A stretch of 64,000 bases of DNA from contig JACPDA010000004.1 in NCBI GenBank assembly GCA_016184225.1, positions 672,316 to 736,315 of the forward strand, given 5' to 3'. The notes under the pieces are model-generated. The model was not told where the DNA came from. It saw only the letters and a list, made by a program, of their open reading frames with translations, and did not search any database. Both the position numbers and the translations under genes were made by a program. This DNA comes from Candidatus Daviesbacteria bacterium (lineage in GTDB: Bacteria; Patescibacteriota; Microgenomatia; Daviesbacterales; UBA10151). Below, piece after piece: positions 4,762 through 50,207 of this stretch (its first letter is position 1; the number at the start of each line of letters is the position of its first letter).

Positions 4762-7473
4762 ATGAAAAAAACAAATAATTTTTTTACAAAGTTTATATAT
4801 TTAGCAGCTGTCCAACTGATTTTAGTTTCCCAGCTTTTGGTCATCGCAGTTGCCATAACAGCTAACCCTATTTATGCGGAAAGCGGTTCCGGCTCAGACG
4901 GCCAAACAGTAATCGAGGAATCTAATAGTGGAAGCAGTTCATCAGAAGAGACGAACTCCGGCAGCGGAACATCCGGTGGAGATACGACACCTACTGATGA
5001 AAGCGCAGGAGCTTCTGAGCAGACAGCTGATACCACTGACCCCAATGCAGCAGACGGAAGTAATTCAGGCAGCGGCAGCAGCTCATCTAATGATGAGAAT
5101 ATCACAACAGAGGAGCCGACAACTGACGTATCAGATCCTAACTTAGCAGACGGAAGCAATTCTGGCTCAGGTAGCCAAGAAGAGCAAACCAGTAACTCCG
5201 GTTCAGGAAATACTGATAGTCAAGTTCAGGAAAATGAAGAGCCAGTTGCTGGCGAAGAGCCTATTGCTGGTGAGGAACCAGTTATCTCTCTACCAGTTAT
5301 TTCTAATGAAGAGCAGGCAGGCGGCACCCAGGATGCCCCGGGTGATACCATCCATGTAGCGCCTGAAGGCACTGCGCCTGAGGGAACACCAACAACAATC
5401 CTGGATCAAGTAACGGTTCCGGCAGCAGGTGAAATAGATCCTGCCACCGGTTTTCCGGCAGCTTACCAGGATGCAACAGGTATTGCAGTCGTTCCTTGTC
5501 TTGACGGCACGGATCCAAACTGTGTCTTACCAGGAGCGGGTGAGGAGCCAAATTTTGATCCTTCCCAACCCACGGTTTTAGACAGCAATTTCCCGTCCGA
5601 GTTTTTCTACTGGATCGCTGAATCAGATCTATTAGAAACTCCGAATGGAGGAAAAACCTTTATCAGAACAGCCGTTGAAGGGGCCTTCTTAAATGAAGAG
5701 CCTGTTGACGGTGACCAAATGGTCTTTGGCAGGATCAGGGTAACAGGTACAGGCTTAGAGCCTAACTCAGAATATACCGTCACCCATCCTTACGGTGTTG
5801 ATACTTACACAACGGATGAGGGGGGTATAATCAAAAGAGGTGAGGGCACACAGGACATTGGTTGTTTTGGGGCTCCCTGCAATTTTGCAGAGGCCTTAGG
5901 CAGCCCTGTCTTTGAAAACTTTCTGCGATGGGATTCCGGCGCACCGGCAGGCTACTTAGGCGATGCGGCTACTCCACACACAGTGGTAGGCAGCCCAACA
6001 GGCCAAAACTTCTTCCGGATTGAAGGTCCGGGACTACCTTTAGAGGGGTTATTTACTAACCTCTTTGCGGTAGCCGGGAAACTTTTATCCGGGGAATTTC
6101 TACCAGGAGTACCGCAAGCAGGCGGTGAAGCTCCGGCAGAGGTCGCACCAGGCGCAAGCGAAGCAGGAACTGTTGACGAAACAACCGGTTTTCCGGCTTC
6201 TTACCAGGATGCCTTGGGTACTTCGGTTGTCAGTTGCCTTGACGGCACTGATCCGAATTGTGTATTGCCAGCAGCAGGGGAGGAGGCGGGTTTTGACCCG
6301 ACCCAGCCAACTGAGCTGGGAACCAATTTCCCGTCCGAGTTTTTCTACTGGATCGCTGAATCAGATCTATTAGAAACTCCGAATGGAGGAAAAACTTTCT
6401 TCCGGATGGCAGTTGAAGGGGCCTTCCTAAACGAAGAGCCTCTAGCAGGTGACCAGATGGTCTTCGGCAGACTCAGATTAACAGGCACCGGACTTGAACC
6501 GAATTCGGTTTACACAGTGACCCATCCTTACGGGGTGGACACTTATGTGACTGATGAGTTGGGGATAGTCCGAAGAGGAGAAGGGACAGAAGATATCGGC
6601 TGTTTTGGTGCACCCTGCAACTTTGCAGCGGCACTTCAGAGCCGAGTCTTTGAAGGATTCCTGAGATGGGATTCCGGCGCACCGGCAGGCTACTTAGGCG
6701 ATGCGGTTACCCCGCATACCGTAACAGGCAGCCCAACCGGAAATAACTTCTTCCGGATTGAAGGACCGGGACTGGGAGAGGGAGGACTATTCACCAACCT
6801 TTTCACAGTAGCTGGTAAACTTGCCAGCACTATCGGTTCTACAATCAGCGGGATAGTTGATACTGTCCTGCCAGGAGTGGAACCGATCATTGATACGGAC
6901 CTACCGAGCGATATTGTAGCCGATGCTCCTGATACAGAAGTAATTCCTGTTCCCGACCCCGTAGCTGAAACTCCGACTACAGAAGCAGCGGAGAATGAAG
7001 TCACGGAATCTGTTGAGCAAGAAGCAGGAGTGGAGCTTACTGCAACTGAGGCATTAGCATCTGCGCAACCAACTGTGGATGCCACTGCGGACAATTCCGA
7101 CAGTAATGATACTAGCCAGCAGAGCAGTAACCAAGCTCAAACAGCTGCATCTGGCAGCTCTGATAACAACTCAGGCAGCGGATCATCCGACTCAAACAGC
7201 GGTACATCCGGCAGTTCTGAAGTTGAGCAGAGAGGCAGCGAAACAGAAGGCGAGGTAGCTAATAACGCTCTGGTTCTTGGCGCAGAGGCGCTGGCAGTTA
7301 CTGAAGAAGAATCTTCAGAAGAGGTTGCAGACGGCGAACAATCACAACAGGCAAACACCAATCCTTGGGAAACTTTCCCGGCTTTAGTCGTAATGGCTAG
7401 TGCCGTAGGATTCCTATTTTGGAAGACGATTGCCGGTCTAGGCTTAAATCCGAAAGGACTCCGGTTTAGATAA
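4762..7473 (+). CDS. large secreted/surface protein with signal peptide, Ser/Gly/Thr-rich linkers, two tandem ~250-aa repeats and a C-terminal TM anchor
   Basis: Strong RBS GGAAGGAGGTG at 4749-4758. N-terminal hydrophobic signal, internal duplicated domain (GFPAAYQDATG...FFRIEGPGL twice) and a C-terminal hydrophobic helix with basic tail (ALVVMASAVGFLFWKTIAGLGLNPKGLRFR). Confidence 0.75.
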   Translation: MKKTNNFFTKFIYLAAVQLILVSQLLVIAVAITANPIYAESGSGSDGQTVIEESNSGSSSSEETNSGSGTSGGDTTPTDESAGASEQTADTTDPNAADGSNSGSGSSSSNDENITTEEPTTDVSDPNLADGSNSGSGSQEEQTSNSGSGNTDSQVQENEEPVAGEEPIAGEEPVISLPVISNEEQAGGTQDAPGDTIHVAPEGTAPEGTPTTILDQVTVPAAGEIDPATGFPAAYQDATGIAVVPCLDGTDPNCVLPGAGEEPNFDPSQPTVLDSNFPSEFFYWIAESDLLETPNGGKTFIRTAVEGAFLNEEPVDGDQMVFGRIRVTGTGLEPNSEYTVTHPYGVDTYTTDEGGIIKRGEGTQDIGCFGAPCNFAEALGSPVFENFLRWDSGAPAGYLGDAATPHTVVGSPTGQNFFRIEGPGLPLEGLFTNLFAVAGKLLSGEFLPGVPQAGGEAPAEVAPGASEAGTVDETTGFPASYQDALGTSVVSCLDGTDPNCVLPAAGEEAGFDPTQPTELGTNFPSEFFYWIAESDLLETPNGGKTFFRMAVEGAFLNEEPLAGDQMVFGRLRLTGTGLEPNSVYTVTHPYGVDTYVTDELGIVRRGEGTEDIGCFGAPCNFAAALQSRVFEGFLRWDSGAPAGYLGDAVTPHTVTGSPTGNNFFRIEGPGLGEGGLFTNLFTVAGKLASTIGSTISGIVDTVLPGVEPIIDTDLPSDIVADAPDTEVIPVPDPVAETPTTEAAENEVTESVEQEAGVELTATEALASAQPTVDATADNSDSNDTSQQSSNQAQTAASGSSDNNSGSGSSDSNSGTSGSSEVEQRGSETEGEVANNALVLGAEALAVTEEESSEEVADGEQSQQANTNPWETFPALVVMASAVGFLFWKTIAGLGLNPKGLRFR

Positions 7474-9376: not shown

Positions 9377-9940
9377 CTAAGATGCCTTTAAAAGGCGCAG
9401 TTCCTCTAAACCTACCCTTAAAGCTTCAACATACCTTTTGTCTGTTCTACCGATGGCAGCCTCAATCTTATCTGGCTTTATAGACCGCACCAAAAATAAA
9501 ACCCGTCCCGAATTTTGAGGATCACCCAAGAGCAAAATCTCCTTCTTCAAACTCGGTCTGCCGTACACTTCAGTAGCTGTCAAGAAACTAGTTCCGCTAA
9601 GCTGACTCGGATCTACCGGTTTAGAGGGTTTAGGGAAAGATTCTTTTATCCAGGAGGGATCGGTAGACAAAACAATGGTTCTTGAGCTACCGAGTCTAGC
9701 ACCAGGACATTTCTTCCTTCTAGCTTCTTTTTCAATTATCTCCTCCATTGTTATATTAAAAACACCCCTCCCAACATGGTGAAAAGGAATAATCACGGGA
9801 CATTCTTGTCCGCTTATCGCTCCTGCCATATGCCGGACAAAATCACCCATGCGCTTAAGCGGTCCTATATTTATTGCTGTTCCCGGCGTCAAGTCGTCTA
9901 TACTGACAATTTTGCAGTAATCACGAAACTCAATTCCCAT
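9377..9940 (-). CDS. hypothetical protein (187 aa)
   Basis: Clean ORF tightly spaced with the downstream coiled-coil ORF. No family recognised from sequence. Confidence 0.4.
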   Translation of the reverse strand: MGIEFRDYCKIVSIDDLTPGTAINIGPLKRMGDFVRHMAGAISGQECPVIIPFHHVGRGVFNITMEEIIEKEARRKKCPGARLGSSRTIVLSTDPSWIKESFPKPSKPVDPSQLSGTSFLTATEVYGRPSLKKEILLLGDPQNSGRVLFLVRSIKPDKIEAAIGRTDKRYVEALRVGLEELRLLKAS

Positions 9941-10007
9941 GATGTCGGATTATACTTCCTTTTTTACACAAAATCAAACCCGTATGAGACTTATTTAGTA
10001 GAAAAAC

Positions 10008-11948
10008 CTAGCGGAAAAGGTCTAAAAGCCTGTCCAAAATGCTCCTTACTGCGGCTATACCCTGAACTGCAGGAGCAGGCTCAGTGGCCGGGGGAGCTGG
10101 TGCCGGAGCAGCCGGAGCTGGTGCCGCCTCCTGTGGGGCAGGTTGGGGAGCGGCCTGCTGCTGCTGTTGTTGCTGCTCAGGCTGCGGTGCCGGAGCAGGA
10201 ACCGACCCACTGCCTCCGGAACCACCACCAGCTGGTGGGGTATAAGAGCCGGAAGAAGGAGCAGTGTAGCTGCCGGAACCACCCCCACTTCCAGCTGGCG
10301 GGGTATAGGATCCTGAACCGGAAGTACCTGAGCACTGACATCTGCTGCCGGTCCAAGTGCAACCTCCTCTGCCACAAGCTACCTCCGGTGACTCATACGT
10401 TCCACCATAACTGCCTGGGCCCGGAGAAGAGGCATAATTCGGATATCCTCCTTGTGAGGTACCTGTCGTTTCGCTTGCTCCAGTGCACTGGCAGGATGAA
10501 TTTATCCAAGAGCAACCCTGTCGTTTCCCGCAAGCAATTGCCGGGCTATCCTTAGAAACACTTGCGCAATCACAACTTGAACCAGTCCACCGGCAACCGC
10601 CAGAAGTACAAGATGATTCCGGGTTTTGTTCTGTGAACGCCGGGGGGGTGTAGGAACGGACAGTCGCAGCGCTACACTGGCAACTTGATCCATTCCAGGA
10701 ACACCCATACCTGCCGCACTCTGCTGCCGGATCCGGTCCGACACTGCTATTGTAATAACCACCGTATCGGCCATAAGATACTTGCGAGGCCTGCTCTGCC
10801 GGAGGCCTGCACTTGTCCGGATTTGCCTTACAGAAATCCTCAAATTCCTGGCGTTTTTCCGAATTTCCAAGAATCTCCGGCGGTCGTCCCTGAGGACACT
10901 GAGCTGGATTGGTGCGGCAGTAAGCTACGTATTCTTGAGACTTTTGGACAGTTTCTTTGGTTTCGCCATAATATCCGCATGAACAGGAATTGCCTGCCCA
11001 GGAACAGTTTGGCGTCCTGTTACACATCTCCACCGGATTGTAATAGCCGCCTCCGGGGGCAATTCCCTTACCCGGATCCTCACCTTTCTTGTAACCGCAA
11101 TCCGCCGGGTTTTGCTGACAATATTTAAGACAGCTCTCAGCCGAATTGCACCCCCCCGGACCGCTGAATGTACCTCCTGAAACTTCAGTAAAACCTTTAC
11201 AAACCTGGAAATTATTGGGGTCTGAGCAAAAAGTTTTGCAAGTGCCCTCTGATTGGCAACCGCCCGGCCCCACCTTGTGCTCCCCACCCCTAAGCCCCAC
11301 CTCCTCGGCAAAAGATTTACATTTACTGGTATTATCCTGCTGAAGGCAAAAAGCCTGGCAGGAATTGGCAGAATCACAACCTAAGACTTCCTTCGCTTTG
11401 TTGATAATTTCCGCTCTGCCCGGATCATTAACCACCCCTGCCGGTATTCCCTGGGATTTGGCAAAGGAGTTACACGTATCATAATTTGCCGGTATCTCGC
11501 AAAAATTTAAACATGCTTCATAAGAATTGCATCCCAATCTTCTTTGCGCCTCCCCTAAAATTTTATCTTTTTCCAAAACAACCGGATCATCTTTGTAAAA
11601 CCCCTTTGATTTGCCGTAATTTATGCAGGTTTTTCCGTTAACCGGATCCTCACAAAAACTTCGACACTCGTAATAAGTACCACAATTTCCCAAATCGGCA
11701 ATCGGAAACTCTACCCCGTAAATTTTGGCCCTGATTTGCGGATCAGCATAATCGCCAATCTTTTGCTCAAAATCATCAATCCCGTCTCTGTTATCATCAA
11801 TAAAAGGACGCCCCTGAGCCGTGGCAGACGGAGATGAGTCTTGTGCTAAAACAGATGAAAAGGAGAGAGTTGCCAGGATGGCTATTCCCAAAAGAAGAAG
11901 CCATTTTCTAACTATATATCCGATACTTAATTTATTTGCAATCATCAT
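10008..11948 (-). CDS. secreted cysteine-rich repeat protein with Gly/Ser-rich and Pro/Ala/Gln-rich C-terminal low-complexity tail
   Basis: Signal peptide (LLLLGIAILATLSFSSVLAQ). At least 4 repeats of GCxSxxxCxxFCxxxxNxxxCxxF and at least 4 repeats of CGxxGCxWxGSxCxC. Then a (SGSYTPPAG)n tract and PAPAPQPEQQQQQQQAAPQPAPQ. Confidence 0.7.
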   Translation of the reverse strand: MMIANKLSIGYIVRKWLLLLGIAILATLSFSSVLAQDSSPSATAQGRPFIDDNRDGIDDFEQKIGDYADPQIRAKIYGVEFPIADLGNCGTYYECRSFCEDPVNGKTCINYGKSKGFYKDDPVVLEKDKILGEAQRRLGCNSYEACLNFCEIPANYDTCNSFAKSQGIPAGVVNDPGRAEIINKAKEVLGCDSANSCQAFCLQQDNTSKCKSFAEEVGLRGGEHKVGPGGCQSEGTCKTFCSDPNNFQVCKGFTEVSGGTFSGPGGCNSAESCLKYCQQNPADCGYKKGEDPGKGIAPGGGYYNPVEMCNRTPNCSWAGNSCSCGYYGETKETVQKSQEYVAYCRTNPAQCPQGRPPEILGNSEKRQEFEDFCKANPDKCRPPAEQASQVSYGRYGGYYNSSVGPDPAAECGRYGCSWNGSSCQCSAATVRSYTPPAFTEQNPESSCTSGGCRWTGSSCDCASVSKDSPAIACGKRQGCSWINSSCQCTGASETTGTSQGGYPNYASSPGPGSYGGTYESPEVACGRGGCTWTGSRCQCSGTSGSGSYTPPAGSGGGSGSYTAPSSGSYTPPAGGGSGGSGSVPAPAPQPEQQQQQQQAAPQPAPQEAAPAPAAPAPAPPATEPAPAVQGIAAVRSILDRLLDLFR

Positions 11949-12187
11949 ATGCTGTCAAATGGATTTTTGTATCCTGAAAAAGGATTGACATATTGGGCAG
12001 ATTTATCAAAGGGGTTTTTATAGCCGGTCTGCAAAGATACTGTCGGCTCTTTTGAAAGGCCGGGTAATTTAATGGAGCTTAGCGGGCTTTTGATTAATCC
12101 TTTTGAAACGAGGAAAAAAACCACTGCCCCAACAATTAAAAGCAGGATTATCGGTGCAACTAACGCAATGGCCCCTTTTTGGTTCAT
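11945..12187 (-). CDS. small membrane protein with GYKNPF repeats
   Basis: Start taken at internal Met (MNQKGAIALVAPIILLLIVGAVVFFLV), overlapping the upstream DoxX-like stop by 4 nt. One TM helix and 3 GYKNPF-like repeats. Confidence 0.45.
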   Translation of the reverse strand: MNQKGAIALVAPIILLLIVGAVVFFLVSKGLIKSPLSSIKLPGLSKEPTVSLQTGYKNPFDKSAQYVNPFSGYKNPFDSI

Positions 12188-12633
12188 GCCTTTTTCAACC
12201 CTTTCAAAACATAAAATGCCCCAATAATTTGGATAACTGCCATGAGCAGATTTAGGCTGTCCGTCGAAGCGCTGGTGTAACCAAACCCCAGCCAAAAAGT
12301 GATATTCAAAAACGCCCCAATCACCAGTCCAGCGATTAAAGCTTTACTCATTAGTTTGTGAGGACGGGGGTTTAAAAGGAGTCCAAGCGCTCCAGTCGTA
12401 ATTAAAACAGCAGACAAAAATTCCCCGGTCAAAACCAGGGTAGCGAAAACCTGGGAGTTGGGGATTACTGTCGAAGTTAAAAAATCTCTAAACCAAGGAT
12501 GAGGGTTTTTAGGCGTTACTTTAGTGAGTGTCTCGCCCAGGTCTTGGACAAAGGTTCCGCCTGAAAGTTTTCCTAAACTGCTTCTTAACCAAATTAGGCC
12601 GACAGTTAAAAGTATTAACAAGAACGGTTTCAT
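12184..12633 (-). CDS. DoxX-family-like membrane protein (4 TM helices)
   Basis: 149 aa with four hydrophobic helices and DoxX-like topology and size. Not diagnostic. Confidence 0.45.
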   Translation of the reverse strand: MKPFLLILLTVGLIWLRSSLGKLSGGTFVQDLGETLTKVTPKNPHPWFRDFLTSTVIPNSQVFATLVLTGEFLSAVLITTGALGLLLNPRPHKLMSKALIAGLVIGAFLNITFWLGFGYTSASTDSLNLLMAVIQIIGAFYVLKGLKKA

Positions 12634-12670: not shown

Positions 12671-14503
12671 TCAAGTGACCTTTTGCCAGCGGGATACCGG
12701 GGTTTTAACCAGGCCAAATTTCTGGCCCAAACGCAGTATTAAACTAAGCAATATGTAGTAGAACCTCCCGTGGTAATGCTTGGAAGCCTCTATTAAATGC
12801 TCATTGGCTTTTTCCTGGCCAATCTTTTTAGTGGATCCCCCATGGAAGTGAATGAATTTGGCAGAAGGGACAAAATAAATCGGCACCTTAAATCGTTTTA
12901 ATCTTCTGGCATATTCTATATCTTCAAAAAAGATAAATGTCCCTTCATCCAAAAGTCCTACTTTATTGATTATCCTTTTTGGAATTAATAAACAGGCCAT
13001 CACCAATCCTTCAACCCGCAACCACCTGGAAGGTGGGCTTTGACTCCTCCCAGGTGAAATCGGTTGAAACATAAAATACGCTCCTCGACGCGCCAAAAAG
13101 TATTCCTTAAACGCCCCGGTTAGAGTAGGCAAGTGAAACGCAGAATCCTGATTGCTTAAATCGGGAAACAGCAATTTCCCGCCCACAACAGCTTTACCCT
13201 GAAAATCTTCAGCCGTATCCAATAACTTTAAAATTCCTTTTTCTAAAACTTCTATATCTGAATTAAGCATCAGGTAATACTCACCCAGGGAGTACCTGAT
13301 AGTTTTGTTATATCCTTTGGAAAAACCTTCATTTTCACTATTCTGCAGGTATTTCAATTTAGGAAGAAACTCTTTGATCTTATCTCTGCAAGGATCAATC
13401 CGGCCGTTATCTAAAACTACAACCTCCATGTCATTCCGGCGAAAGCCGGAATCCATATCAAAAATGCTTTTTAAAAGTTTCCTGGTCAACTCCGGGGTAT
13501 TGTAATTAACAATGCCAATAGAAAGCTTAATCGGGTATTCAACATTGTGCTCACCTGGAAGGTGCAAACCTATCCCACCTTCCAGGTGGACTAGATTGAC
13601 ACCTCCTCTTATCCCTAAATAAAAATCCAACACCCCTCTTCGCTGGGCAGGCCTGCCGAAAATAAACAGTTTGATGGCTTCTCTAAGTAATGCAAACTTA
13701 GTGCGGATTCTACCATACTGAATTCCGAAGATCAGTCTATTCCGTGTGTGGTAGTAATCAGTAACAACGGAACCAATTCCGGTTGATTGGGAAACCTTAT
13801 GATAAAGGCTAACCTTACTATTGTAATAAATCTTAAATCCGGCCTCCGCAACCCTTTTTGCCAGATCACTATCTTCAAAATACAAAAAGTATTTCTCATC
13901 TAATCCTCCTAATTCCTCTAAGACCTCTTTTTTAATTAAAACGCAGGCCCCCGAGAAAATCCCGGCTTCTTCTCCGCCAGCTGGCGGATCATATTGCCCC
14001 TTATCTACCTCATCAATTCCCCGGTGTAATGAGCTGATATTATCCCAGTCAAACTTACCCCCGGCAAACCAAATCACTTTGCCCAAATCCTTACTTCCAT
14101 ACCTTTCTTTGTGAAATTCAAAACCAGGGGCAAAGTAAATCTTGGGGGAGACCAGACCAATTTTTGGATCGGATTTTAAAGTCTTTACAAGTTCTAAAAT
14201 CAAATCCGGATCTTTTATTAAACAATCATTATTTATCAGCAAAAAATAATCCGCCCCCCAGGCCTTTGCATAGTCCAAACCCCTGTTGAAACCGCCCGCA
14301 TACCCCAAATTTTCTCCGGTTTGTAAAACATCCACCTCAGGGAATGCCTTATGTACAGCAGAAACACTGCCATCCGTTGATGCATTGTCCACAACAATTA
14401 CCTGTAACCTGTAACCTGTAACCTGTAACCTCTTTAAAGACTCCAGAAAATCCAGTGTATCCTGCTTGCCGTTATAGTTAAGTGTAATAATTGCTACTTT
14501 CAT
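12671..14503 (-). CDS. tandem two-domain family 2 glycosyltransferase
   Basis: Two GT-A/GT2 modules (IITLNYNGKQDTLDFLESL...VVDNASTDGS and IGIVNYNTPELTRKLLKSI...VVLDNG), each with a DxD-like region. Confidence 0.8.
   Translation of the reverse strand: MKVAIITLNYNGKQDTLDFLESLKRLQVTGYRLQVIVVDNASTDGSVSAVHKAFPEVDVLQTGENLGYAGGFNRGLDYAKAWGADYFLLINNDCLIKDPDLILELVKTLKSDPKIGLVSPKIYFAPGFEFHKERYGSKDLGKVIWFAGGKFDWDNISSLHRGIDEVDKGQYDPPAGGEEAGIFSGACVLIKKEVLEELGGLDEKYFLYFEDSDLAKRVAEAGFKIYYNSKVSLYHKVSQSTGIGSVVTDYYHTRNRLIFGIQYGRIRTKFALLREAIKLFIFGRPAQRRGVLDFYLGIRGGVNLVHLEGGIGLHLPGEHNVEYPIKLSIGIVNYNTPELTRKLLKSIFDMDSGFRRNDMEVVVLDNGRIDPCRDKIKEFLPKLKYLQNSENEGFSKGYNKTIRYSLGEYYLMLNSDIEVLEKGILKLLDTAEDFQGKAVVGGKLLFPDLSNQDSAFHLPTLTGAFKEYFLARRGAYFMFQPISPGRSQSPPSRWLRVEGLVMACLLIPKRIINKVGLLDEGTFIFFEDIEYARRLKRFKVPIYFVPSAKFIHFHGGSTKKIGQEKANEHLIEASKHYHGRFYYILLSLILRLGQKFGLVKTPVSRWQKVT
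14399..14431. repeat. heptanucleotide tandem repeat (GGTTACA/CCTGTAA) x4 inside GT2 coding sequence
   Basis: acCTGTAACCTGTAACCTGTAACCTGTAACCtc encodes RLQVTGYRLQV in the N-terminal region of the GT2 gene. The same CTGTAACC motif recurs in the trmD insertion at 39510-39577. Confidence 0.85.
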
Positions 14504-14520
14504 ATATTTAATTTCCGTAC

Positions 14521-14572
14521 GTGTCTACTTATCCCACCCCTGGGGTGGGTTAGCTTCACACAGTAGATAAAC
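14521..14572. repeat. REP-like element, family C (GTGTCTACTTATCCCACCCCTGGGGTGGGTTAGCTTCACAC)
   Basis: Hairpin CCCACCCC/GGGGTGGG plus TAGCTT tail between two GT2 genes. Near-identical copy at 39241 and related copies at 40022, 40748 and 58696. Confidence 0.7.
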
Positions 14573-15473
14573 CGTCTATATAAACCCTGGCCCTCTTAGT
14601 TTTTCCCAAAAGAGAAAAGGCAACTACCCGAAGGATCAACCCCAGAATTAAAACCACCTTAAGCAGTAGATAAAATGACTTCATATGCTTCAAAATATAG
14701 TATCTAATTCCTCTCAGTTCATTTAGAAAACTTGGGGACAAGTCAAAGTTGGTAGAAGCGCCGTGCAAATGAACTACTTCAATAGTAGGTACATACCAAG
14801 CCTTAAACCCCTTATCGGCAATCCTTTTGCACCATTCCACCTCTTCCGTATGCATAAATAGATTTTCATCAAAACCGTTGGTACCAACAAAAACCTCTCT
14901 CTTTAGCATAAAAAAAGCTCCCATTACCCAGCCAACCGGGTGAGCCTTAGAAAAATATTTTTTATCAGTAGGGTGGAAAGCGGGAACAAGCTTATTTACA
15001 AGAGGAATCTTGCTTAAACCAAAAATCCAAAAAATTATATTTAAAAAGCTTGGTAAATTTCCGGCACTTGGCTGCAACCTACTGTTTGCATACTTTAACC
15101 TAGCTCCTAAAAGATCACAATTTAAATTAACTCGAAAATAAGCCAGGGCTTTATACAAACTTTCTTCCTCCAAATAAACATCGGAATTAAGCAGCAGGAT
15201 AAAGGGATCCTTAGACTGCCGCATGGCCAGGTTATTTCCTTTGGAAAATCCCAAGTTTTCCTTTGAAGCAATCAGCTTCACCCAGGGATAATCGGATTTA
15301 ATAAACTGCGCTGACCCGTCGGAAGAACCATTATCCAAAACAACTACCTCGATATTATTTCCCAGTCTTTTCTCGCAGTATTCCTTAGCTATTCTTACTT
15401 TATCCAAACACCTACCGGTGATATCTTTTGTGTTATAGCTTAAAATGACAACTGACAAATCTAAATTATTCAT
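14556..15473 (-). CDS. family 2 glycosyltransferase
   Basis: LSVVILSYNTKDITGRCLDKV...VVLDNGSSDGS GT2 signature. Confidence 0.8.
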   Translation of the reverse strand: MNNLDLSVVILSYNTKDITGRCLDKVRIAKEYCEKRLGNNIEVVVLDNGSSDGSAQFIKSDYPWVKLIASKENLGFSKGNNLAMRQSKDPFILLLNSDVYLEEESLYKALAYFRVNLNCDLLGARLKYANSRLQPSAGNLPSFLNIIFWIFGLSKIPLVNKLVPAFHPTDKKYFSKAHPVGWVMGAFFMLKREVFVGTNGFDENLFMHTEEVEWCKRIADKGFKAWYVPTIEVVHLHGASTNFDLSPSFLNELRGIRYYILKHMKSFYLLLKVVLILGLILRVVAFSLLGKTKRARVYIDGLSTV

Positions 15474-16407
15474 AACGGAGCCCTGCCATTATTTTAAACT
15501 TCCTGTAATGTTCTAAAAGTTTTATCCCCCAAAGCACAAAATCACGGAAAACTGGTGGGTATTTTTTGTAGTAGTGTTTTTTATAAAAAATCCTCATGGC
15601 TGAGACGGCATGGGTGGCTGCATTTAGCCTGGTTTCCTTTGCCACTTCCTTGGCCGATGTTTGCCGCAGGCCGGAAGAGGAACCCTTGAAATGGATAATC
15701 TTTACCTCAGGATAATAATAAATTTTCCAGCCTTTCTCCTTTAAGGAATAACAAAATTCAATATCTTCTCCGTTAAAAAAATAGTCCTCATCCCAAAATC
15801 CGATCTGCTGCCCGGCAATTTTCCGGACCATCAGGAAACTGCCGCTGACACAGTCTATTTCATGAGATTCATCAGGATTTAAGTATGAAGCACTGTAGCC
15901 GGCAAAAATAGGGGAGCGGGGAAAGAGTTTGCTCAGGCCACTAAAGTAAGCAAAAGAATTCCAGGGGGTAGGGAAACCCCGGTGGCAGGAATAATCTAAC
16001 CTGCCGTCAGGCAGTTCCACCTTGCAACTTAAAGCCCCAATATCCGGGTCAGATAATAAGACTTCCAGGGATTTCTGAATGGCATGGCCTTTGATAATAG
16101 TATCTGGATTTAAAAATAGAATCACCGGCGCCTTGACTTTTTTGACTCCCATGTTATTACCCGCCGCAAAACCTAGATTTGAGCGATTTTCGATCAAATC
16201 TACCCTGAGCGAAGTCGAAGGGCTACCATATCTTTCTTTTACTGCTTCCACTGACCCGTCACTTGAGCCGTTATCTACCACAATTACCTGCCAGCGGTTC
16301 AGCTTACCTTTGCTCTGGAAGATTGAAGCAAGACAGTTTAAAAGTAAGTCCTTAACATTGTAATTAAGGATAACAATAGATAACTCTGGAGTTCCTCTTT
16401 CTGCCAT
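15466..16407 (-). CDS. family 2 glycosyltransferase
   Basis: LSIVILNYNVKDLLLNCLASI...VVDNGSSDGS GT2 signature. Overlaps the downstream GT2 gene by 8 nt. Confidence 0.8.
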   Translation of the reverse strand: MAERGTPELSIVILNYNVKDLLLNCLASIFQSKGKLNRWQVIVVDNGSSDGSVEAVKERYGSPSTSLRVDLIENRSNLGFAAGNNMGVKKVKAPVILFLNPDTIIKGHAIQKSLEVLLSDPDIGALSCKVELPDGRLDYSCHRGFPTPWNSFAYFSGLSKLFPRSPIFAGYSASYLNPDESHEIDCVSGSFLMVRKIAGQQIGFWDEDYFFNGEDIEFCYSLKEKGWKIYYYPEVKIIHFKGSSSGLRQTSAKEVAKETRLNAATHAVSAMRIFYKKHYYKKYPPVFRDFVLWGIKLLEHYRKFKIMAGLRYE

Positions 16408-17444: not shown

Positions 17445-18420
17445 CTTCCAACCTCTGGATTTAACCCTTGAAAAACCACTTTCATATTCTTAATATATAA
17501 AGATATGCCTTATAGAACAGTCATTCTTGCCGCAGGGGAAATTTACCACATCTTAAATAGGGGAGTAGCCGGCCTCCCCATATTTCATTCGCCCACCAAT
17601 TATTCTAGATTTATACAACTTATGGACTATTACCGATTTGCCGACACTCCTGTAAGTTTTTCTCATTTTATGAAGGTCCCTTTTGAAGAACGAAACTTAA
17701 TTTTGGATAAATTAAAGAAACAAAATAATCTGCAGGTTGAAATTTTGGTCTTTTGTCTAATGCCTAATCATTTCCATCTGCTACTAAAACAGATCACTGA
17801 AAAAGGCATCACTAATTTTATAAGCAATGTCCAAAATGGCTATGCGAAATACATCAATATTAAGGAAGACAGAGCAGGCCCCTTGTTTCAATCAGCATTT
17901 AAAGGAGTAAGGATAGAAACTGACGAACAACTACTTCATGTATCAAGATATATTCATTTGAACCCGTCGACAGGATATTTGGTGGGAATAGAAAAGTTAA
18001 TAGAATATCCTTGGTCTTCCTTACCGGATTACCTTGAAAGCGCCAATAAAAAGTTTGCTTTTGTAAGCCCCGACTTAATTCTTAGTTTCTTTGGAAGCAG
18101 AGGAAGTAGGGGGAAATATAAAGAATTTGTTTTAAATCAAGCTGAATACCAAAGAAAATTAGCTAATATAAAACATCTGGTTTTGGAATAGAAATTATAG
18201 GAATTACCAAGGGTTTGAAGCCATTCAACACCAGGGGTTGGAAGCTATGTTACTGGTTCAAATTAAAGCCAGTGATACATAAACATCAGTGAATCACATT
18301 TGTCCCACGGCCGTGGAATATTTGAAACAACTTTAGCTTGCAACCTTTCAGGTTGCCGCACACCGTGGGATATTTGAAAACTTTAGCTTTCCACACCGGG
18401 TGTGGAATCGTAAACACTGG
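17427..18420 (+). mobile_element. REPtron-like unit 1: RAYT gene with flanking family-D REPs plus a downstream REP hairpin cluster, inserted between atpC and atpD
   Basis: CAACCCCAGGGGTTGATTAGCTTCCAACC at 17427 and CACCAGGGGTTGGAAGCTAT at 18230 flank the RAYT ORF. Hairpins CCCACGGCCGTGG, GCAACCTTTCAGGTTGC and CCACACCGGGTGTGG (each preceded by TTTAGCTT) lie at 18281-18420. Confidence 0.65.
17505..18191 (+). CDS. REP-associated tyrosine transposase (RAYT)-like HUH Y1 transposase, copy 1
   Basis: HuH motif LMPNHFHLL and a downstream catalytic Tyr context (HVSRYIHLNP). Paralogous to the ORFs at 24822, 40078 and 49509. Confidence 0.75.
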   Translation: MPYRTVILAAGEIYHILNRGVAGLPIFHSPTNYSRFIQLMDYYRFADTPVSFSHFMKVPFEERNLILDKLKKQNNLQVEILVFCLMPNHFHLLLKQITEKGITNFISNVQNGYAKYINIKEDRAGPLFQSAFKGVRIETDEQLLHVSRYIHLNPSTGYLVGIEKLIEYPWSSLPDYLESANKKFAFVSPDLILSFFGSRGSRGKYKEFVLNQAEYQRKLANIKHLVLE

Positions 18421-26273: not shown

Positions 26274-27842
26274 TTAATCCAGCTTTTCGCGCTGGCTCCG
26301 CAGGAATGAAAACCATTGTTCAAAAAAGGCAAAAATGCCCTTAAACGGGGTCTCTATAATAAAATCAAATATATATAAGAAAATATTAATTTGGGTCATG
26401 GTCAGGGTTAACCTTCTGCCGATTTGGATCAGCGGCATAAAGAAAAAGTCAAAAACCAAAGAGCCTAAGTTTTCCTTTTTATCTTTTAAAATATACTTAT
26501 GGGCAGTCCGGTTGATCCGGTAACTGACAAAGGAAACTATTGCCAGGAAGAAGATAAACACCCCTTGGGAAAACGGATTAACTCCCAGCTTGGTTAAAAT
26601 AAATATTACCGCCCCGAAACTTAAAGCAGCGGTGGCCAGCCAGAGCAAAGCAAATACAAACCAGAGCAGAGGATCAATCTTGTTCGGCCTTTTTTTAACT
26701 ATTAAAGGAGTTCCCAACTGCGCAGGCTCGCCGTATAAAATTGTATTGATCTTCCTTAAAATCCGGTAGGAATTTTCCCTACTGGGTGAGGGCATCAAAA
26801 GTCCCACTATAATCATTAAGATAGGTGGAGTCATGATATTGACGATGATGGAAGCCCAATAAGTCCGCCCGTAAAAAAGCCTCTCAAATGCCCCTTCCAC
26901 AAACAAAGCAAAAATAGCCTTGGTGACAAATATAAATATGACGCTTCTGACAATCGCCCTTCTGACTTTTCCGGCAGTGGATTTATAACGGGCATTGCAC
27001 GCGGCCAGTACCTCCGAGCTTAAGTATTCCTCATTGGAAACCAGGCCATAAGCCTTACCGCGGTGTTTCCTTAACACATCATCCAGGATTAAAAAGGGGA
27101 TGGTCCGGTCTTTAATATAAGTATGGATTTTATCTTTGGCAGGGTATTTGAATTGCTGTTCAATTTGGCGATAAGCTGTCAGAAAATGCTCTGCTATCTT
27201 TTCCAATTTCTCTTCGCTTAAAACACCAAAATACTGGATAAATAGATGGTATCGTAAAAATGCCAGGTCATCACTGGCATAAGCCCGCCTCACGGCTATA
27301 AAAACCTGCAGATCCCGGACTTCTTCTGTATCATCGCTAATGCTCACAAGGTCCTTGAAAATCCTAAAGATGAAATTACTCATCACATCTTTGGGATCAT
27401 TAGGTTTTAAGAGATGCTCTATTTCGGAAGAAAGTAAATGCATCATCCATTCATTAATTACTCCTTTGTTTAAGGAATGAGCTTTGTGGATTTTCTCCTC
27501 CAATTTCAGATATAAATCGATTGCTTCCGCTACTTTAGTCACCTGCGATTCAGGAATAGAGGAGTCCGGAAAATAACGAGCCCAAACCAACTCCCTGATG
27601 AGTGGTGCTGCTACTGTTTTGCCGTTTCCACCTAAAATCAGCCTTCTTTTTAAGATTCGCTCAATAGTTGAGCGCAGGATGACTTCGTCCTCCCGGTAAT
27701 CCATGGCGGTGCGGAACTTTTCATACCAGGTAGCCAGTTCTGCCACCAAAGGGTTCACGGAAACAGTCCTATCGTAGTTGGGAGCAGCAGTCCGGTCATA
27801 TGCTGCAACGAGTGCAGTAGATAATTTATTTAATGTGGCCAT
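26274..27842 (-). CDS. hypothetical integral membrane protein (N-terminal soluble ~300 aa, C-terminal 5-6 TM helices)
   Basis: Hydrophobicity pattern only. It may belong to the membrane-embedded family annotated in Pfam as putative site-specific recombinase, which I cannot verify. Confidence 0.4.
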   Translation of the reverse strand: MATLNKLSTALVAAYDRTAAPNYDRTVSVNPLVAELATWYEKFRTAMDYREDEVILRSTIERILKRRLILGGNGKTVAAPLIRELVWARYFPDSSIPESQVTKVAEAIDLYLKLEEKIHKAHSLNKGVINEWMMHLLSSEIEHLLKPNDPKDVMSNFIFRIFKDLVSISDDTEEVRDLQVFIAVRRAYASDDLAFLRYHLFIQYFGVLSEEKLEKIAEHFLTAYRQIEQQFKYPAKDKIHTYIKDRTIPFLILDDVLRKHRGKAYGLVSNEEYLSSEVLAACNARYKSTAGKVRRAIVRSVIFIFVTKAIFALFVEGAFERLFYGRTYWASIIVNIMTPPILMIIVGLLMPSPSRENSYRILRKINTILYGEPAQLGTPLIVKKRPNKIDPLLWFVFALLWLATAALSFGAVIFILTKLGVNPFSQGVFIFFLAIVSFVSYRINRTAHKYILKDKKENLGSLVFDFFFMPLIQIGRRLTLTMTQINIFLYIFDFIIETPFKGIFAFFEQWFSFLRSQREKLD

Positions 27843-29938: not shown

Positions 29939-31876
29939 TTATCCCAAAGCTCCTAGGACAGCACTAATGCCTTCTTTGTTCAAAATCTTAAGTTTTTGAC
30001 CGGCAGGGATATAACGTAAAGCCGCCAGAAGTTTTCGCAAAGCTTCTTTATCTCCTGTTTGGGCTTTAGCCACTAAGTCATTTATCTCTGTAAGTCCCAC
30101 CGGAAACGGGCTTTCCGGGATATTATGATTAGCAGCCATCTGCTGCCACATATCTGTCAGCATATCATTATTAGCCGCAATATGTGCCCCCAGCATTGGA
30201 GCATCAGCACCGGTCCAGGTGACCTGATATCCTGCATCTTGGAGCATTTGGCCGACATTACTACCTTGGGCAATTGCCTGGTCGACAAATAAATCAGGTG
30301 CCGTCTCCAGAGCAGAAGAAACATTTTGTGTCAAGGCTTCTGTCACTTGAGTTTGTTCATTAATAGCTTGTTGAGCAACTTCAGTCAATTGCTGGTGGGT
30401 GGCATCTTGAGCCAGCCAGGATTCAAAGGCATTTTGGCCTGCTTCAGCCCCACCACTTACATCATAAACGGCATTTGCTTTCTCTTCCAAAGCATGCTGG
30501 ACCGCCTGATGTGCTCTATCTATGGCTGCCTGATCAATATCTGCCAGGGTGTGATTGCTTTGCTCTAAGGCTTTTTTGACAACTTCATCCTGCATTGAAG
30601 GCAAAACTTTACCTACCTCTGCTGCCTTATCCTCTAGTAGCAGATCAATAGCACCCGTTTCTGTCGGCAGGGGAGCGGCTGGAGACGACACTAAAGGAGC
30701 GGGCGGAGGTTGTACAATGTCCGGACTACCAGCTTGGGCAGGCGTTTCAGGACCAAACGGGGCAGCAGCCGGCGGTTGTGCCAAGGTAGGTGCGGGGGTG
30801 GGAAAAGCTGTAACGGGAGGGACTTCGGTTGGGGTAGCTAAAACTTCTAAATTACCACCCGGTAAACCACCCGGTCCTGCTGCAATAGTAGGTGTAGCAG
30901 TTGGGCTGGCTATTGTTTCAGTTGCTGGTCCTGGTGCTGCGGTGGCAGTAGGTATCTTAGGTGCTTCACCCCCCACCAAACCAGCTGGCATCTTGGGTGG
31001 AGGGGTCCCTGTTGCTGTTGCTGTAAATGCTTCTTTGCCTACTTCAGAAACAATACTACCCAAAGATAGGTACATTGCTCCGGCAGATAACCCTAAAGCA
31101 AAATCCTTAATTCTTTGGTGAGCCTTACCGTATTTTTCAGCAATCTTAGCCATCTCTTCATCCATACTTGCCGGATACAATTTGAGTAGTCTTTGCATTC
31201 GGGCCTCTTCACGGGCGCGGGGCAAATTCAGTACCAAATGTGTACCTTGGGTAATGGCTAAATTCAATCCGGCTTTAGCAAATCCTTTTAACGGGAGTGG
31301 TAAAGCTATAAAAGCCGCGCTTTCAGCAGCACCGACTCCAAACCCGATCCTCCATAACCAATCCTTTTGAACAAAATTTTTGGGATTTAAATTCTCAGCC
31401 CAATGTCTAAAGCCAATTCCAACAGCTTGTTTAAGTTCGCCACTGCTAATAACCTGACCAATCCCGCCTGCCTTTTCTCCAATCCCACCTCCAATCCTTC
31501 CTGCTGTATCACCAATGGTCCGACCGACCACCCCTGCAGCATCCCCAACTTTACCTAATCCTTTTTTGAAAAAACCTGGCCGCGCAGCTGATACACCTGA
31601 TAATTGTTCTTCTAAGGCGCCCTCTCGCAGTTCCCTTCTTTTTTCTTCAGGCGATCCAGCTCCACCGCTCTGATCGCCTGTGCCAGGATCAGGAAAGGTT
31701 TGCTCCATAAACTTATCAGCAGCTTGTTCAGCAGCACCTGGATTAACTGATGATGGTTCTCCATCAGGCATTGGTATTCTCCCTCTTTCCATAATAATGC
31801 AGGATATACCCCTCTTGTCAAATTTGCAAACAGTTCCTAAGAATAGGATAATAAAAAATATATGGAAATGGACCAA
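29939..31876 (-). CDS. large hypothetical protein with Gly-rich N-terminal region, central Pro/Ala/Thr-rich linker and helical C-terminal domain
   Basis: Long ORF. The internal Met at 31792 (MERGRIPM) is a possible true start. No family recognised. Confidence 0.45.
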   Translation of the reverse strand: MVHFHIFFIILFLGTVCKFDKRGISCIIMERGRIPMPDGEPSSVNPGAAEQAADKFMEQTFPDPGTGDQSGGAGSPEEKRRELREGALEEQLSGVSAARPGFFKKGLGKVGDAAGVVGRTIGDTAGRIGGGIGEKAGGIGQVISSGELKQAVGIGFRHWAENLNPKNFVQKDWLWRIGFGVGAAESAAFIALPLPLKGFAKAGLNLAITQGTHLVLNLPRAREEARMQRLLKLYPASMDEEMAKIAEKYGKAHQRIKDFALGLSAGAMYLSLGSIVSEVGKEAFTATATGTPPPKMPAGLVGGEAPKIPTATAAPGPATETIASPTATPTIAAGPGGLPGGNLEVLATPTEVPPVTAFPTPAPTLAQPPAAAPFGPETPAQAGSPDIVQPPPAPLVSSPAAPLPTETGAIDLLLEDKAAEVGKVLPSMQDEVVKKALEQSNHTLADIDQAAIDRAHQAVQHALEEKANAVYDVSGGAEAGQNAFESWLAQDATHQQLTEVAQQAINEQTQVTEALTQNVSSALETAPDLFVDQAIAQGSNVGQMLQDAGYQVTWTGADAPMLGAHIAANNDMLTDMWQQMAANHNIPESPFPVGLTEINDLVAKAQTGDKEALRKLLAALRYIPAGQKLKILNKEGISAVLGALG

Positions 31877-40077: not shown

Positions 40078-40746
40078 ATGGCCTTCAGAAAAACTCTTAT
40101 TGTAACCAATGAGATATATCATGTCTTCAACAGAAGCGTAGGACAACAACCCATCTTTTTATCGAGCAAAGATTATGAACGCGCTGTAGAGGTGTTGAGA
40201 TTTTACCAATATGGGAAACTCCCTCTTAGATTTTCCTTTTTTAATCGCCTTGCAAAAGATCAAAAAGAAACATTCCTCCTAGATATTGAGGAATCTTTAA
40301 AACCTGTTGTGAAGATTATTTGTTTCTGCTTAATGCCAAATCATATCCATTTCTTGTTGAAAAACTTAACCGAAAATGGAATCACGCAGTTTATGGGTAA
40401 CCTACAAAATAGTTATGCGCGATACTTTAATATCAAAAATGGGCGAACCGGAACACTTTTTCAACAAAACTTCAAAGCAGTCAGGATTGAAACAGACGAG
40501 CAATTAGTGCATGTTTCCCGTTATATCCATTTAAACCCAGTTACTGCATACCTCATCAAACCAGAGGAACTTAAGCAATATGAGTGGTCTTCATATAAGG
40601 ATTACTTAAATACCAATCTCTCTTATCTTAAAAAGAAAGTAATTCTAGATTTTTTTAAATCTCCTAAAGAATATGTGAATTTTGTCCTAAATCAAGTTGA
40701 TTATCAAAGAGAATTAGATAGGATTAAGCATTTAATTTTGGAGTAG
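40078..40746 (+). CDS. RAYT-like HUH Y1 transposase, copy 3
   Basis: LMPNHIHFLL and HVSRYIHLNP motifs. Flanked by direct copies of the family-C-variant REP. Confidence 0.75.
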   Translation: MAFRKTLIVTNEIYHVFNRSVGQQPIFLSSKDYERAVEVLRFYQYGKLPLRFSFFNRLAKDQKETFLLDIEESLKPVVKIICFCLMPNHIHFLLKNLTENGITQFMGNLQNSYARYFNIKNGRTGTLFQQNFKAVRIETDEQLVHVSRYIHLNPVTAYLIKPEELKQYEWSSYKDYLNTNLSYLKKKVILDFFKSPKEYVNFVLNQVDYQRELDRIKHLILE

Positions 40747-40797: not shown

Positions 40798-41496
40798 CTA
40801 TTCAAAAGGATTGGATTTGCCTTTAGGTGATGAGGGGATAAATAAAGTGCCGGGAATTATTGTCCCTTCATTTATAAGTCTTGCAATCAGTTCTTCATCT
40901 TTCTGACTAAGCTCAGGCACGGGAGAATCAGGGCTGCCAAAGTTTTTAGGCAGGGGTGAATATAAAACTTCAACTGCCAAAGCTATATCAAGAGCTTGAC
41001 TGGCTTGGTTAGATGAAACATTAATACTTTTTACCCTAATCAATCTGGGTGAATTTTCCAAATTACTTAACAGAGTTTGCAAACCAGCCCGGGGGCCTTT
41101 AATGTCCAGCTTAACTTCGAAGCTCTCCGAGTTTCCTGACTTTCCCGCACCACTGCCAAAAGAGATCGAACCGATGTTAAATCCGGACTCAATCGTCAGT
41201 TTTTGCAAGCTACCCAGGACAATTCCGAAATCTTTTTCCCCGGGAAGTGTAACCAAAGCATACTCCAGTTTGCGTAACAAATCCTCACTGTCATAACTTT
41301 CCAGCGCATTAACCTTATTTTCCAAAAAATCAGACTTATTAATCAGGTCTCCAATTGCCTGCTGGTTATCTATCAATTTATTCACCTGGGGATAAATTAC
41401 AAACAGACTTAAGAAAATACTAGAAATCGCCACTACTGCCGGAAAAATATAGAGCTTGTATTTGGAATAAAATTTAATCAGGTCTTCTTTTTTCAT
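40798..41496 (-). CDS. pilO: type IV pilus assembly protein PilO-like
   Basis: Single N-terminal TM helix and coiled coil, followed by a periplasmic domain. Sits directly downstream of pilN. Confidence 0.6.
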   Translation of the reverse strand: MKKEDLIKFYSKYKLYIFPAVVAISSIFLSLFVIYPQVNKLIDNQQAIGDLINKSDFLENKVNALESYDSEDLLRKLEYALVTLPGEKDFGIVLGSLQKLTIESGFNIGSISFGSGAGKSGNSESFEVKLDIKGPRAGLQTLLSNLENSPRLIRVKSINVSSNQASQALDIALAVEVLYSPLPKNFGSPDSPVPELSQKDEELIARLINEGTIIPGTLFIPSSPKGKSNPFE

Positions 41497-42038: not shown

Positions 42039-42041
42039 CTG

Positions 42042-43079: not shown

Positions 43080-43127
43080 TAAAATTATTTTAGAACAAAC
43101 TATACCCTAAACGCTATACCCTAAACC

Positions 43128-45848: not shown

Positions 45849-45851
45849 TAC

Positions 45852-48346: not shown

Positions 48347-48350
48347 GATT

Positions 48351-48392
48351 TAATTGTACATTGTAAATTTTACATTGTACATTCCCTATGGC
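48351..48392. promoter_or_regulatory. AT-rich near-palindrome (TGTACAATGTAAAATTTACAATGTACA) immediately upstream of a pilin start codon; candidate operator/promoter element
   Basis: TACATTGTA units in inverted arrangement begin 5 nt upstream of the ATG at 48346. Confidence 0.35.
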
Positions 48393-48871: not shown

Positions 48872-48875
48872 AGAC

Positions 48876-49475: not shown

Positions 49476-49508
49476 TACATTTAAACCAGGATATGGTCTA
49501 CTAAATCT

Positions 49509-50159: not shown

Positions 50160-50173
50160 GTCGGAATTATCAG

Positions 50174-50203: not shown

Positions 50204-50207
50204 ATAG

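Follow-up and report, generated by a model that had tools for sequence, protein, structure and literature searches.

Large Cys-rich extracellular proteins, with a mean length of 1655 aa and weak similarity to the Cys-rich repeats of Myxococcus, have been described in Peregrinibacteria (PMC4736985), and a "secreted cysteine-rich protein" has been reported in Roizmanbacteria (PMC6509639); attachment has been proposed as the role of such proteins in these members of the Candidate Phyla Radiation (CPR, or Patescibacteria) (PMC4736985, PMC6509639). The subject of the present analysis is a gene located on the minus strand, at 10008..11948, of a 64,000-nucleotide stretch of contig JACPDA010000004.1 from a Candidatus Daviesbacteria bacterium (hereafter the window, to which coordinates refer unless a locus is named). 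When compared by description, its product shares with the Peregrinibacteria and Roizmanbacteria proteins the CPR origin, a signal peptide, the high Cys content and a proposed extracellular location. The Peregrinibacteria proteins are much larger, however, and the descriptions give no module definition, partner gene or tail such as we find here. We propose, with roughly even confidence, that the window protein is the large subunit of a CPR-specific two-gene module of the envelope or cell surface, whose other gene, located immediately upstream, encodes a small membrane protein ending in tandem Asn-Pro-Phe (NPF) motifs. Because the two genes are almost always adjacent, the two proteins probably form a previously undescribed surface module. 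The general kind of protein, i.e., an exported, Cys-stapled, membrane-tethered repeat protein of the cell surface, is known; the domains are undescribed.

Several better characterized systems resemble this one in part. HcpA, HcpB and HcpC of Helicobacter, which are Sel1-like/TPR solenoids, are also exported bacterial proteins built of tandem, disulfide-stapled helix-turn-helix modules, and helical-repeat arrays such as Sel1-like/TPR often bind peptides. In contrast to the Hcp and other Sel1-like repeat proteins, which have one disulfide per repeat, the conserved repeat of the window protein (denoted here the A module) contains four Cys in the arrangement C-x5-C-x3-C-x8-C, and the protein matches no Sel1 or TPR model of Pfam at E<=10. 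The plant alpha-hairpinins and the CHCH proteins with CX3C/CX9C motifs are likewise helix-loop-helix units with four Cys and presumably two disulfides. In those proteins, two symmetric CX3C or CX9C pairs bridge the helices, whereas in the modelled A module one Cys precedes helix 1, two are on helix 1 and one is on helix 2; furthermore, the window modules occur in at least five tandem copies within a large exported bacterial protein and have no Pfam match.

The partner recalls the EH domain/NPF system of eukaryotic endocytosis, in which tandem NPF motifs lie in an unstructured tail; here, the gene for such a tail adjoins that for a domain of helix-loop-helix pairs. Given that the bacterial protein has no EF-hand or EH match, is Cys-stapled and is probably extracellular, the resemblance is an analogy only. 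Finally, in PBP5 and PBP6 of E. coli, the last ~15-20 residues form a strongly amphipathic helix that can lie in the outer face of the cytoplasmic membrane. The window protein is similarly an exported protein that ends in a predicted amphipathic helix (hydrophobic moment, muH, 0.63), although there is no sequence relationship and its tail possesses its own V-Q-G-x-[ST] prefix.

The gene pair and its distribution in CPR

The gene is a genuine open reading frame (ORF) of 646 aa with an ATG start and a stop codon at 10008-10010, and its product is 100% identical over the full length to NCBI HYU45_03845, a hypothetical protein of Candidatus Daviesbacteria bacterium. An initial annotation, made from the DNA sequence alone, described a secreted protein of 646 aa with a signal peptide, in agreement with the ORF and the predicted Sec-type signal; the ~60 Cys that it counted are in fact 44. 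These make up 6.8% of the residues, compared with 0.88% in the long ORFs of the window. The GC content over the gene (positions 10001-12000) is 50.5%, against ~40-42% in the flanks, which is due to Gly/Pro/Ala/Cys-rich coding, and the same composition creates long spurious ORFs on the opposite strand and in other frames (e.g., 9776-10555 on the plus strand, 259 aa). The features of the gene pair and of the ORF adjoining it are as follows:

10008..11948, minus strand: gene for the exported Cys-rich repeat protein (ORF, identical NCBI entry, at least 198 homologues)
11844..11948, minus strand: Sec signal peptide, residues 1-35, MMIANKLSIGYIVRKWLLLLGIAILATLSFSSVLA followed by QD, predicted from sequence features
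11718..11843, minus strand: variable acidic N-terminal segment of the mature protein, residues 36-77, not conserved family-wide
11097..11717, minus strand: A domain with five A modules, the conserved core of the family, present in all 120 listed homologues and modelled with AlphaFold
10674..11042, minus strand: block of modules B1, C1, C2 and B2, residues 303-425, conserved in Microgenomates-type homologues
10332..10610, minus strand: three extra B modules, B3-B5, with the first Cys at 447, 473 and 525, located by regular expression and sequence
10068..10331, minus strand: low-complexity spacer seen in the sequence, with (G/S)n-GSYT(P/A)P repeats ahead of a Q7-containing Pro/Ala/Gln tract
10011..10067, minus strand: C-terminal tail VQGIAAVRSILDRLLDLFR, consisting of a V-Q-G motif and a predicted amphipathic helix, in nearly all close homologues
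11945..12187, minus strand: partner gene for an 80-aa single-pass membrane protein as judged from sequence, NCBI HYU45_03850, MNQKGAIALVAPIILLLIVGAVVFFLVSKGLIKSPLSSIKLPGLSKEPTVSLQTGYKNPFDKSAQYVNPFSGYKNPFDSI
12101..12172, minus strand: transmembrane segment of the partner, AIALVAPIILLLIVGAVVFFLVSK, predicted from hydrophobicity
11948..12028, minus strand: triple Y-x-NPF tail of the partner, TGYKNPFDKSAQYVNPFSGYKNPFDSI, recognized by its motif
12184..12633, minus strand: possibly DoxX-like ORF, 149 aa, multi-pass membrane protein, chained to the partner gene by an ATGA overlap

The partner gene is the only truly conserved neighbour, and the initial annotation overlooked it. The two genes are translationally coupled: the TGA stop of the partner gene and the start codon of the Cys-rich gene overlap by 4 nt (ATGA), and the partner ATG is joined likewise to the stop of the DoxX-like ORF. 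A scan of one genome per GTDB species yielded 75 loci with the Cys-rich gene, and in 69 of these a motif search identified an NPF-type gene directly upstream, mostly with the 4-nt overlap. Among the six misses, three loci have no upstream sequence, and the other three show weaker evidence of a partner: the motifs are degenerate in two (DPF/NPF/SPF in L050, NPL/NPF in L076), and in the third (L072), where the upstream frame extends beyond the region inspected, only one NPF is visible besides a transmembrane stretch, so that a partner is probable there. When degenerate motifs are counted, a partner is present in all 72 loci with upstream sequence, that of L072 being only probable. Clustering of the ORFs of the 75 loci also shows that only two families recur throughout, namely the Cys-rich protein (75) and the small upstream protein (67). 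Such strict gene pairing points to a specific protein-peptide interaction.

At least 177 homologues of the partner, ~80 aa in length, were identified, with no match to any Pfam or NCBIfam family. All 73 partner ORFs have one hydrophobic segment, with a median span of 28 uncharged residues after an N-terminus of ~4 residues, and a C-terminal tail of a median ~55 residues, the end of which has the consensus Y.NPFdk..QYVNPFs.YKNPFd.lk. Three NPF-type motifs are found in 51 of the 73 and four in 20. No natural fusions of the partner with the Cys-rich protein were detected among 120 homologues. The beginning of the partner (MNQKG followed by a hydrophobic stretch) is superficially similar to that of type IV pilins, which are defined by a class III signal peptide with G at -1, a hydrophobic residue at +1 and Glu at +5, and by the Pfam model N_methyl. 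The partner neither matches N_methyl nor has Glu at +5, and distant partners lack K-G, whereas the genuine pilins of the same window do match N_methyl; a pilin-like nature of the partner was rejected on these grounds.

A word-indexed search returned at least 198 homologues of the Cys-rich protein, all annotated as hypothetical and none with a Pfam domain; those with organism names are from Daviesbacteria, Roizmanbacteria, Gottesmanbacteria, Microgenomates and "Patescibacteria group". In an exhaustive HMMER search of 1.84 billion representatives, the family comprises 1750 clusters at 50% identity with E<=1e-3, including 963 with E<=1e-30. All informatively named matches belong to Patescibacteria/CPR and, judged by these sequence matches, the family is restricted to this group. 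A single-A-module profile (60 modules) run through the word index retrieved one 67-aa fragment only. The Microgenomates loci cover Davies-, Roizman-, Gottesman-, Woese-, Levy-, Curtiss- and Blackburnbacteria. Exactly five A modules are present in each of the 120 listed homologues, the number of B modules ranges from 0 to 8, and all 20 Cys of the A modules are invariant in an alignment of 119 sequences, as are certain Gly, Pro, Leu, Asp and Ala residues.

Distant relatives, with 24-34% identity, are found in Parcubacteria, Uhrbacteria and Saccharibacteria. They contain 5-13 A modules of the form GPGGCxSxxxCxxYCxDPxNxxxCxxFAxxxGL, no B modules and, in most cases, no tail, and they preserve the partner with 2-4 NPF motifs. 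Since these relatives, devoid of B modules and mostly of the tail, still have the partner, the evolutionarily stable unit consists of the A modules and the NPF partner, the only features common to the whole family. The window pair displays the complete set of features by which we delimit the family, i.e., a signal peptide, C-x5-C-x3-C-x6-8-C modules in five or more tandem copies and, directly upstream, the gene of a single-pass protein with two or more NPF motifs at its end.

Compared with the Daviesbacteria genome CP066688, the Cys-rich protein is 46% identical, the partner 59%, PheT 53%, the TyrS-like protein 62% and PBP1a 73%; by this comparison of sequences, the divergence rate of the Cys-rich protein is ordinary and housekeeping-like. 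The synteny of the locus is kept within Daviesbacteria. Many loci from "binchicken" metagenome-assembled genomes (MAGs; L008-L010, L015 and others) are titled "uncultured Gammaproteobacteria bacterium" and yet carry the gene pair; given the identity of up to 84% and the synteny with the Daviesbacteria locus, we read these titles as placeholders or errors.

Three MAGs hold two paralogues each. Copies within one genome were observed at L047 (512-1834 and 4821-7082) and also in L008/L078, L009/L081 and L013/L073; the second copy in L047, located ~3 kb upstream, is apparently 5'-truncated or frameshifted; it combines A-like modules with a long YYTPP repeat and ends in the same tail. Some members deviate from the common architecture. 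The proteins P0261 (L083 1346-4087) and P0311 (L084 3001-5367) possess a Big_13 Ig-like domain besides a second A-module set, and both end in a true transmembrane helix. Big_13, seen in these two, is the sole known fused domain in a scan of long or atypical members, and its combination with the transmembrane end suggests that the C-terminus is at the membrane and the protein is outside the cell. Despite its own transmembrane anchor, P0261 has an overlapping NPF partner. Another atypical member (P0344) has 1555 aa and 140 Cys; its ~12 A modules are accompanied by a second, long region composed of CP-rich repeats.

Modules, tail and fold of the Cys-rich protein

The predicted signal peptide consists of a K/R n-region, a Leu-rich h-region and a cleavage-type site, VLA/QD (...SSVLA/QD, where the slash marks the cleavage position), and an equivalent site, ...[VF]xA/Q[ED], is preserved in homologues. 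Just after it there is a calcium-loop-like DxNxDGxxD motif, PFIDDNRDGIDDFEQ (PF[IV]D[DE]NGDGIDDFE), which is found in 21 of 120 homologues, that is, in the Daviesbacteria-like subclade only.

The A modules, ~40-50 aa long, follow the pattern C-x5-C-x3-C-x8-C, with x6 in the fifth copy, and have their first Cys at residues 89, 140, 191, 231 and 267 and conserved GPGGC/LGC and FAK motifs. The B module is C-x4/5-C-x6-C-x-C with a conserved Trp (C-x4/5-C-x-W-x4-C-x-C) and occurs in five copies, the first Cys of which are at 309 (B1), 411 (B2), 447 (B3), 473 (B4) and 525 (B5). Between B1 and B2 are two C-x6-C modules (C[RK]xNPxxC; Cys344/351 and Cys373/380), denoted C modules. Both kinds of Cys mini-repeat named by the initial annotation are thus present, but the C-x6-C modules were missing from its list; it credited each kind with at least four copies, and four do fit its patterns, but each kind has a fifth, variant copy, A1 (NCGTYYECRSFC...C) and B1 (CNRTPNCSWAGNSCSC). 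These modules are far above chance: 2000 shuffles of the same protein gave a mean of 0.04 A and 0.02 B matches, with a maximum of 2 each, compared with the observed 5 and 5. The Gly/Ser (GSYT) tract, the Pro/Ala/Gln tract (PAPAPQPEQQQQQQQ...) and the amphipathic C-terminus, all reported previously, are readily found in the sequence. The length and composition of the spacer differ widely among homologues, e.g., YYTPP or SYSYPTP repeats are found in 900-aa forms.

The tail is 19 aa long (VQG...LLDLFR), with ~16 residues, D and R among them, after VQG. Its helical hydrophobic moment is the highest in the window protein, with a mean H of 0.06. These properties are typical of an in-plane membrane helix, and the tail is too polar and too short for a transmembrane span. 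In the family, the pattern is [VT][QH]G[VIA][ST]x3-5 and then an amphipathic stretch (e.g., LLQxILDFL), with 17-27 residues from VQG to the stop, and it is found in nearly all Microgenomates-type members; at least one protein with Parcubacteria-type modules (P0351) ends in the same tail. Among all ORFs of ~0.8 Mb of CPR loci and of the window, the pattern was detected in family members only and on no unrelated protein; an apparent exception, L047 512-1834, is the fragmentary paralogue with A-like modules. Sorting signals such as LPXTG, PEP-CTERM or GlyGly-CTERM combine a motif with a hydrophobic helix of ~20 aa and a basic cluster, and are shared by several proteins per genome. The tail has no hydrophobic helix with a basic cluster and no match to an NCBIfam sorting domain, and was rejected as a signal of this type.

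Scans of the protein against Pfam and NCBIfam at E<=10 yielded only low-complexity noise (DUF6264, PRK14952), and a profile search of all PDB sequences gave one spurious low-complexity match. AlphaFold2, run with the 119-sequence alignment, modelled residues 66-430 with a mean predicted local distance difference test (pLDDT) score of 77.9, and the A domain (66-292) with 86.7. In this model, the A module is a helix-loop-helix, in which Cys1 immediately precedes helix 1, Cys2 and Cys3 are spaced by one turn within that helix, and Cys4 is on helix 2; the B module is a short helix with a beta-hairpin, and the C modules are helices, at pLDDT ~60-85. Foldseek comparison of the model to the PDB found no relative, the best E value being 1.8, with TPR proteins at a TM score of ~0.1, i.e., noise.

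Four described families were considered as candidates and rejected. EGF-like domains are ~40 aa long, with six Cys paired 1-3, 2-4 and 5-6 on a two-stranded beta-sheet, and are recognized by Pfam EGF models; there is no EGF-family match at E<=10, each module has four Cys, the A modules are helical and no PDB fold matches. Granulin is a 12-Cys module of stacked beta-hairpins with CC pairs and a Pfam model of its own, which finds no match; CC doublets are absent from the window protein, whose A modules are predicted to be helical and which has four Cys per module. Knottins (inhibitor cystine knots) have six Cys in ~30 aa, forming a knotted core of three disulfides, whereas the A modules are modelled as helix-loop-helix and the B modules carry only four Cys. 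The Sel1-like repeat/TPR proteins, including Helicobacter Hcp, are superhelices of antiparallel helix pairs of 34-44 aa, with profile matches and superposable structures; neither the Pfam profiles (E<=10) nor the structure comparison supports this relationship. The EGF-, granulin- and knottin-like folds had been named previously as candidates to test for, and are not supported by the structure prediction, with its helical A modules (pLDDT ~87) and four-Cys B modules, whereas the statement that no characterized family comes into question agrees with the lack of meaningful Pfam or NCBIfam matches and of a solved fold match. No relatives of the protein, in sequence or in structure, are detectable among described families. 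In the literature searched for the motifs and for Cys-rich proteins of CPR, the family, its modules and its partner are undescribed.

A proposed membrane-tethered complex and its alternatives

In the scenario that we favor, the Cys-rich protein would be exported by Sec, after which two disulfides would arise locally from the four Cys of each module, with C1-C2 and C3-C4 as the probable pairs. This pairing is suggested by the two-Cys C modules, which share the CxxNPxxC of C3-C4 of A5 and have no choice but an internal bond. An MdbA-like oxidoreductase, often encoded beside VKOR, is enriched among CPR genomes (bioRxiv 10.1101/335083), and because such enzymes could form them, disulfides are plausible; the view of a secreted, disulfide-rich protein is upheld to this extent, with the disulfides predicted from the sequence. 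The Pro/Gly/Ser-rich spacer could serve as a stalk that keeps a rigid head of A modules off the membrane, and the amphipathic tail may keep the C-terminus at the membrane, a task that a true transmembrane helix would take over in some homologues, where it replaces the tail. The partner would be inserted N-in/C-out (type II), and its extended NPF tail might be bound by the A-module array, in the manner in which helical-repeat or EH-type domains bind short peptide motifs; the orientation of the partner and the binding of NPF are together the weakest steps. The outcome would be a membrane-tethered complex of two proteins. Its role is most likely that of a conserved envelope scaffold or binding structure (wall organisation, attachment) rather than of a fast-evolving adhesin or toxin, given that the divergence rate is unlike that of an arms-race adhesin or toxin.

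By analogy with EH domains, the A-module array might represent a new disulfide-stapled helical-repeat fold that reads the tandem NPF motifs of a membrane-anchored partner, an extracellular bacterial counterpart of the EH/NPF pair, with the complex being a conserved CPR envelope structure, possibly involved in wall organisation or host contact. We put this forward tentatively, as a possibility that we consider less likely than its opposite. CPR/Patescibacteria are a huge, mostly uncultured group whose envelopes and host contacts are poorly understood and whose lineage-specific proteins are mostly unannotated. If NPF recognition were true, it would add a previously unknown binding module and give access to the surface biology of CPR; if false, the family would still merit Pfam/NCBIfam domain models. 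New are the two sequence families (~1750 clusters at 50% identity and at least 177 partners), the module definitions, a confident helical model without a solved structural relative and the strict gene pairing.

Several results weigh against the proposed complex. Neither homology nor fold points to a function. No partner gene lies within 3 kb of P0311. The numbers of NPF motifs (2-5) and of A modules (5-13) do not follow a simple stoichiometry, and the partner/Cys-rich pairs are too few and too invariant for covariation analysis. Furthermore, the mean number of K/R residues in the partner is 1.6 on the N-side and 3.1 in the C-side flank, so that the topology is ambiguous by the positive-inside rule and the NPF tail could be cytoplasmic.

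This ambiguity leads to an alternative that we judge unlikely, namely that the partner is a transmembrane adaptor, oriented N-out/C-in, whose cytoplasmic NPF motifs recruit some factor and whose helix joins the tail of the exported protein, linking the surface to the cell interior. It would account for the excess of K/R after the transmembrane segment (3.1, compared with 1.6 before it) in Daviesbacteria-type partners and for the apparently amphipathic, membrane-seeking tail of the Cys-rich protein. However, partners with longer N-termini are strongly basic at the N-flank (e.g., KKPRIAR in L003), and the short N-terminus of the others always has K/R beside the hydrophobic stretch, as in signal-anchor n-regions. 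Most distant relatives have lost the tail while keeping the NPF partner and the A modules, which favours NPF pairing with the exported A domain and not with the tail. A rather improbable reading concerns the Cys themselves: the four Cys of each module might be a Cys4 site for Zn, Fe or Cu, in an extracellular store, a sensor, or an electron or sulfide handler of an anaerobe. Every module has four invariant Cys per ~25 residues, two C-x6-C modules could jointly make one Cys4 site and, as is generally known, many CPR inhabit anoxic groundwater, a setting less favourable to disulfides. Yet Sec exports an unfolded chain, none of the 119 aligned sequences has His or Asp at a Cys position, the CxxC knuckles typical of Zn sites are absent, and the module spacing is typical of small disulfide-stapled repeats; in addition, the disulfide-forming MdbA-like and VKOR enzymes are common in CPR genomes (10.1101/335083).

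The initial annotation placed the protein in a surface/glycosylation cluster, as a surface glycoprotein whose Ser/Thr-rich spacer is O-glycosylated by the adjacent family 2 glycosyltransferases (GT2), next to a DoxX-like protein. The three nearby GT2 genes that it listed are borne out by GT2 domains at 12671-16407; in this genome, ATGA overlaps connect the DoxX-like ORF to the NPF gene and the latter to the Cys-rich gene, the spacer is rich in S, T and Y, and a gene for a PMT_2 (GT-C type) protein adjoins one homologue. The cluster itself does not hold up across the family, however: a GT2 gene is a neighbour at 17 of the 75 loci, both GT2 and DoxX-like neighbours are missing at most loci, and the DoxX match is below threshold. 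Moreover, GT2 enzymes are generally known to be active on the cytoplasmic side, and direct glycosylation of an exported protein would not be expected of them; we consider this reading very unlikely. Least probable of all, in our view, is that the Cys-rich protein is a secreted toxin, effector or relative in kind of the bacteriocins, for which the small membrane protein provides immunity or export. The layout of the cassette, a small membrane protein followed by an exported Cys-rich protein, and the common occurrence of toxins and antimicrobials among Cys-rich secreted proteins, which is general knowledge, are in line with such a function. This is difficult to reconcile with the large size of the protein, its spacer and membrane-seeking tail or transmembrane anchor, with its conservation over several CPR lineages at a housekeeping-like rate and with synteny in Daviesbacteria, with the lack of a catalytic or toxin domain in the Pfam and NCBIfam scans, and with the upstream, translationally coupled position of the partner, which would be unusual for an immunity gene.

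Neighbouring genes and other features of the window

The ORF adjacent to the partner gene scores 13.9 bits (E 0.085) against Pfam DoxX, below the gathering cut-off of 23.6 bits, and its identity as DoxX-like is possible from this sequence match. No DoxX-like gene is among the recurrent neighbours in the 75 loci. After the gene pair, the commonest neighbours are GT2 (17), an unknown 383-aa protein (17) and PBP1a (15), a recurrence that is local synteny; SecA, PBP1a, tRNA synthetases and others are the neighbours at other loci. The 383-aa protein (L010 3342-4493 and equivalents) has an N-terminal transmembrane segment and no Pfam match; it is encoded just upstream of the gene pair in 17 of the 75 loci, often in two copies, and is absent from the window.

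Elsewhere in the window, four large ORFs have no Pfam match at the thresholds used, namely 4762-7473 (plus strand, 903 aa), 26274-27842 (minus strand, 522 aa), 29939-31876 (minus strand, 645 aa) and 31862-34381 (plus strand, 839 aa). A type IV pilus cluster at ~40800-55850 encodes a PilO-like protein, PilM, several N_methyl pilins and the prepilin peptidase PilD (50208-51110), and also holds large unannotated ORFs, e.g., 43128-44939 (603 aa, no Pfam match). Three ORFs of 216-228 aa, all on the plus strand (17505-18191, 40078-40746 and 49509-50159), encode IS200-like Y1 transposases, a density that is unusual for a small CPR genome.

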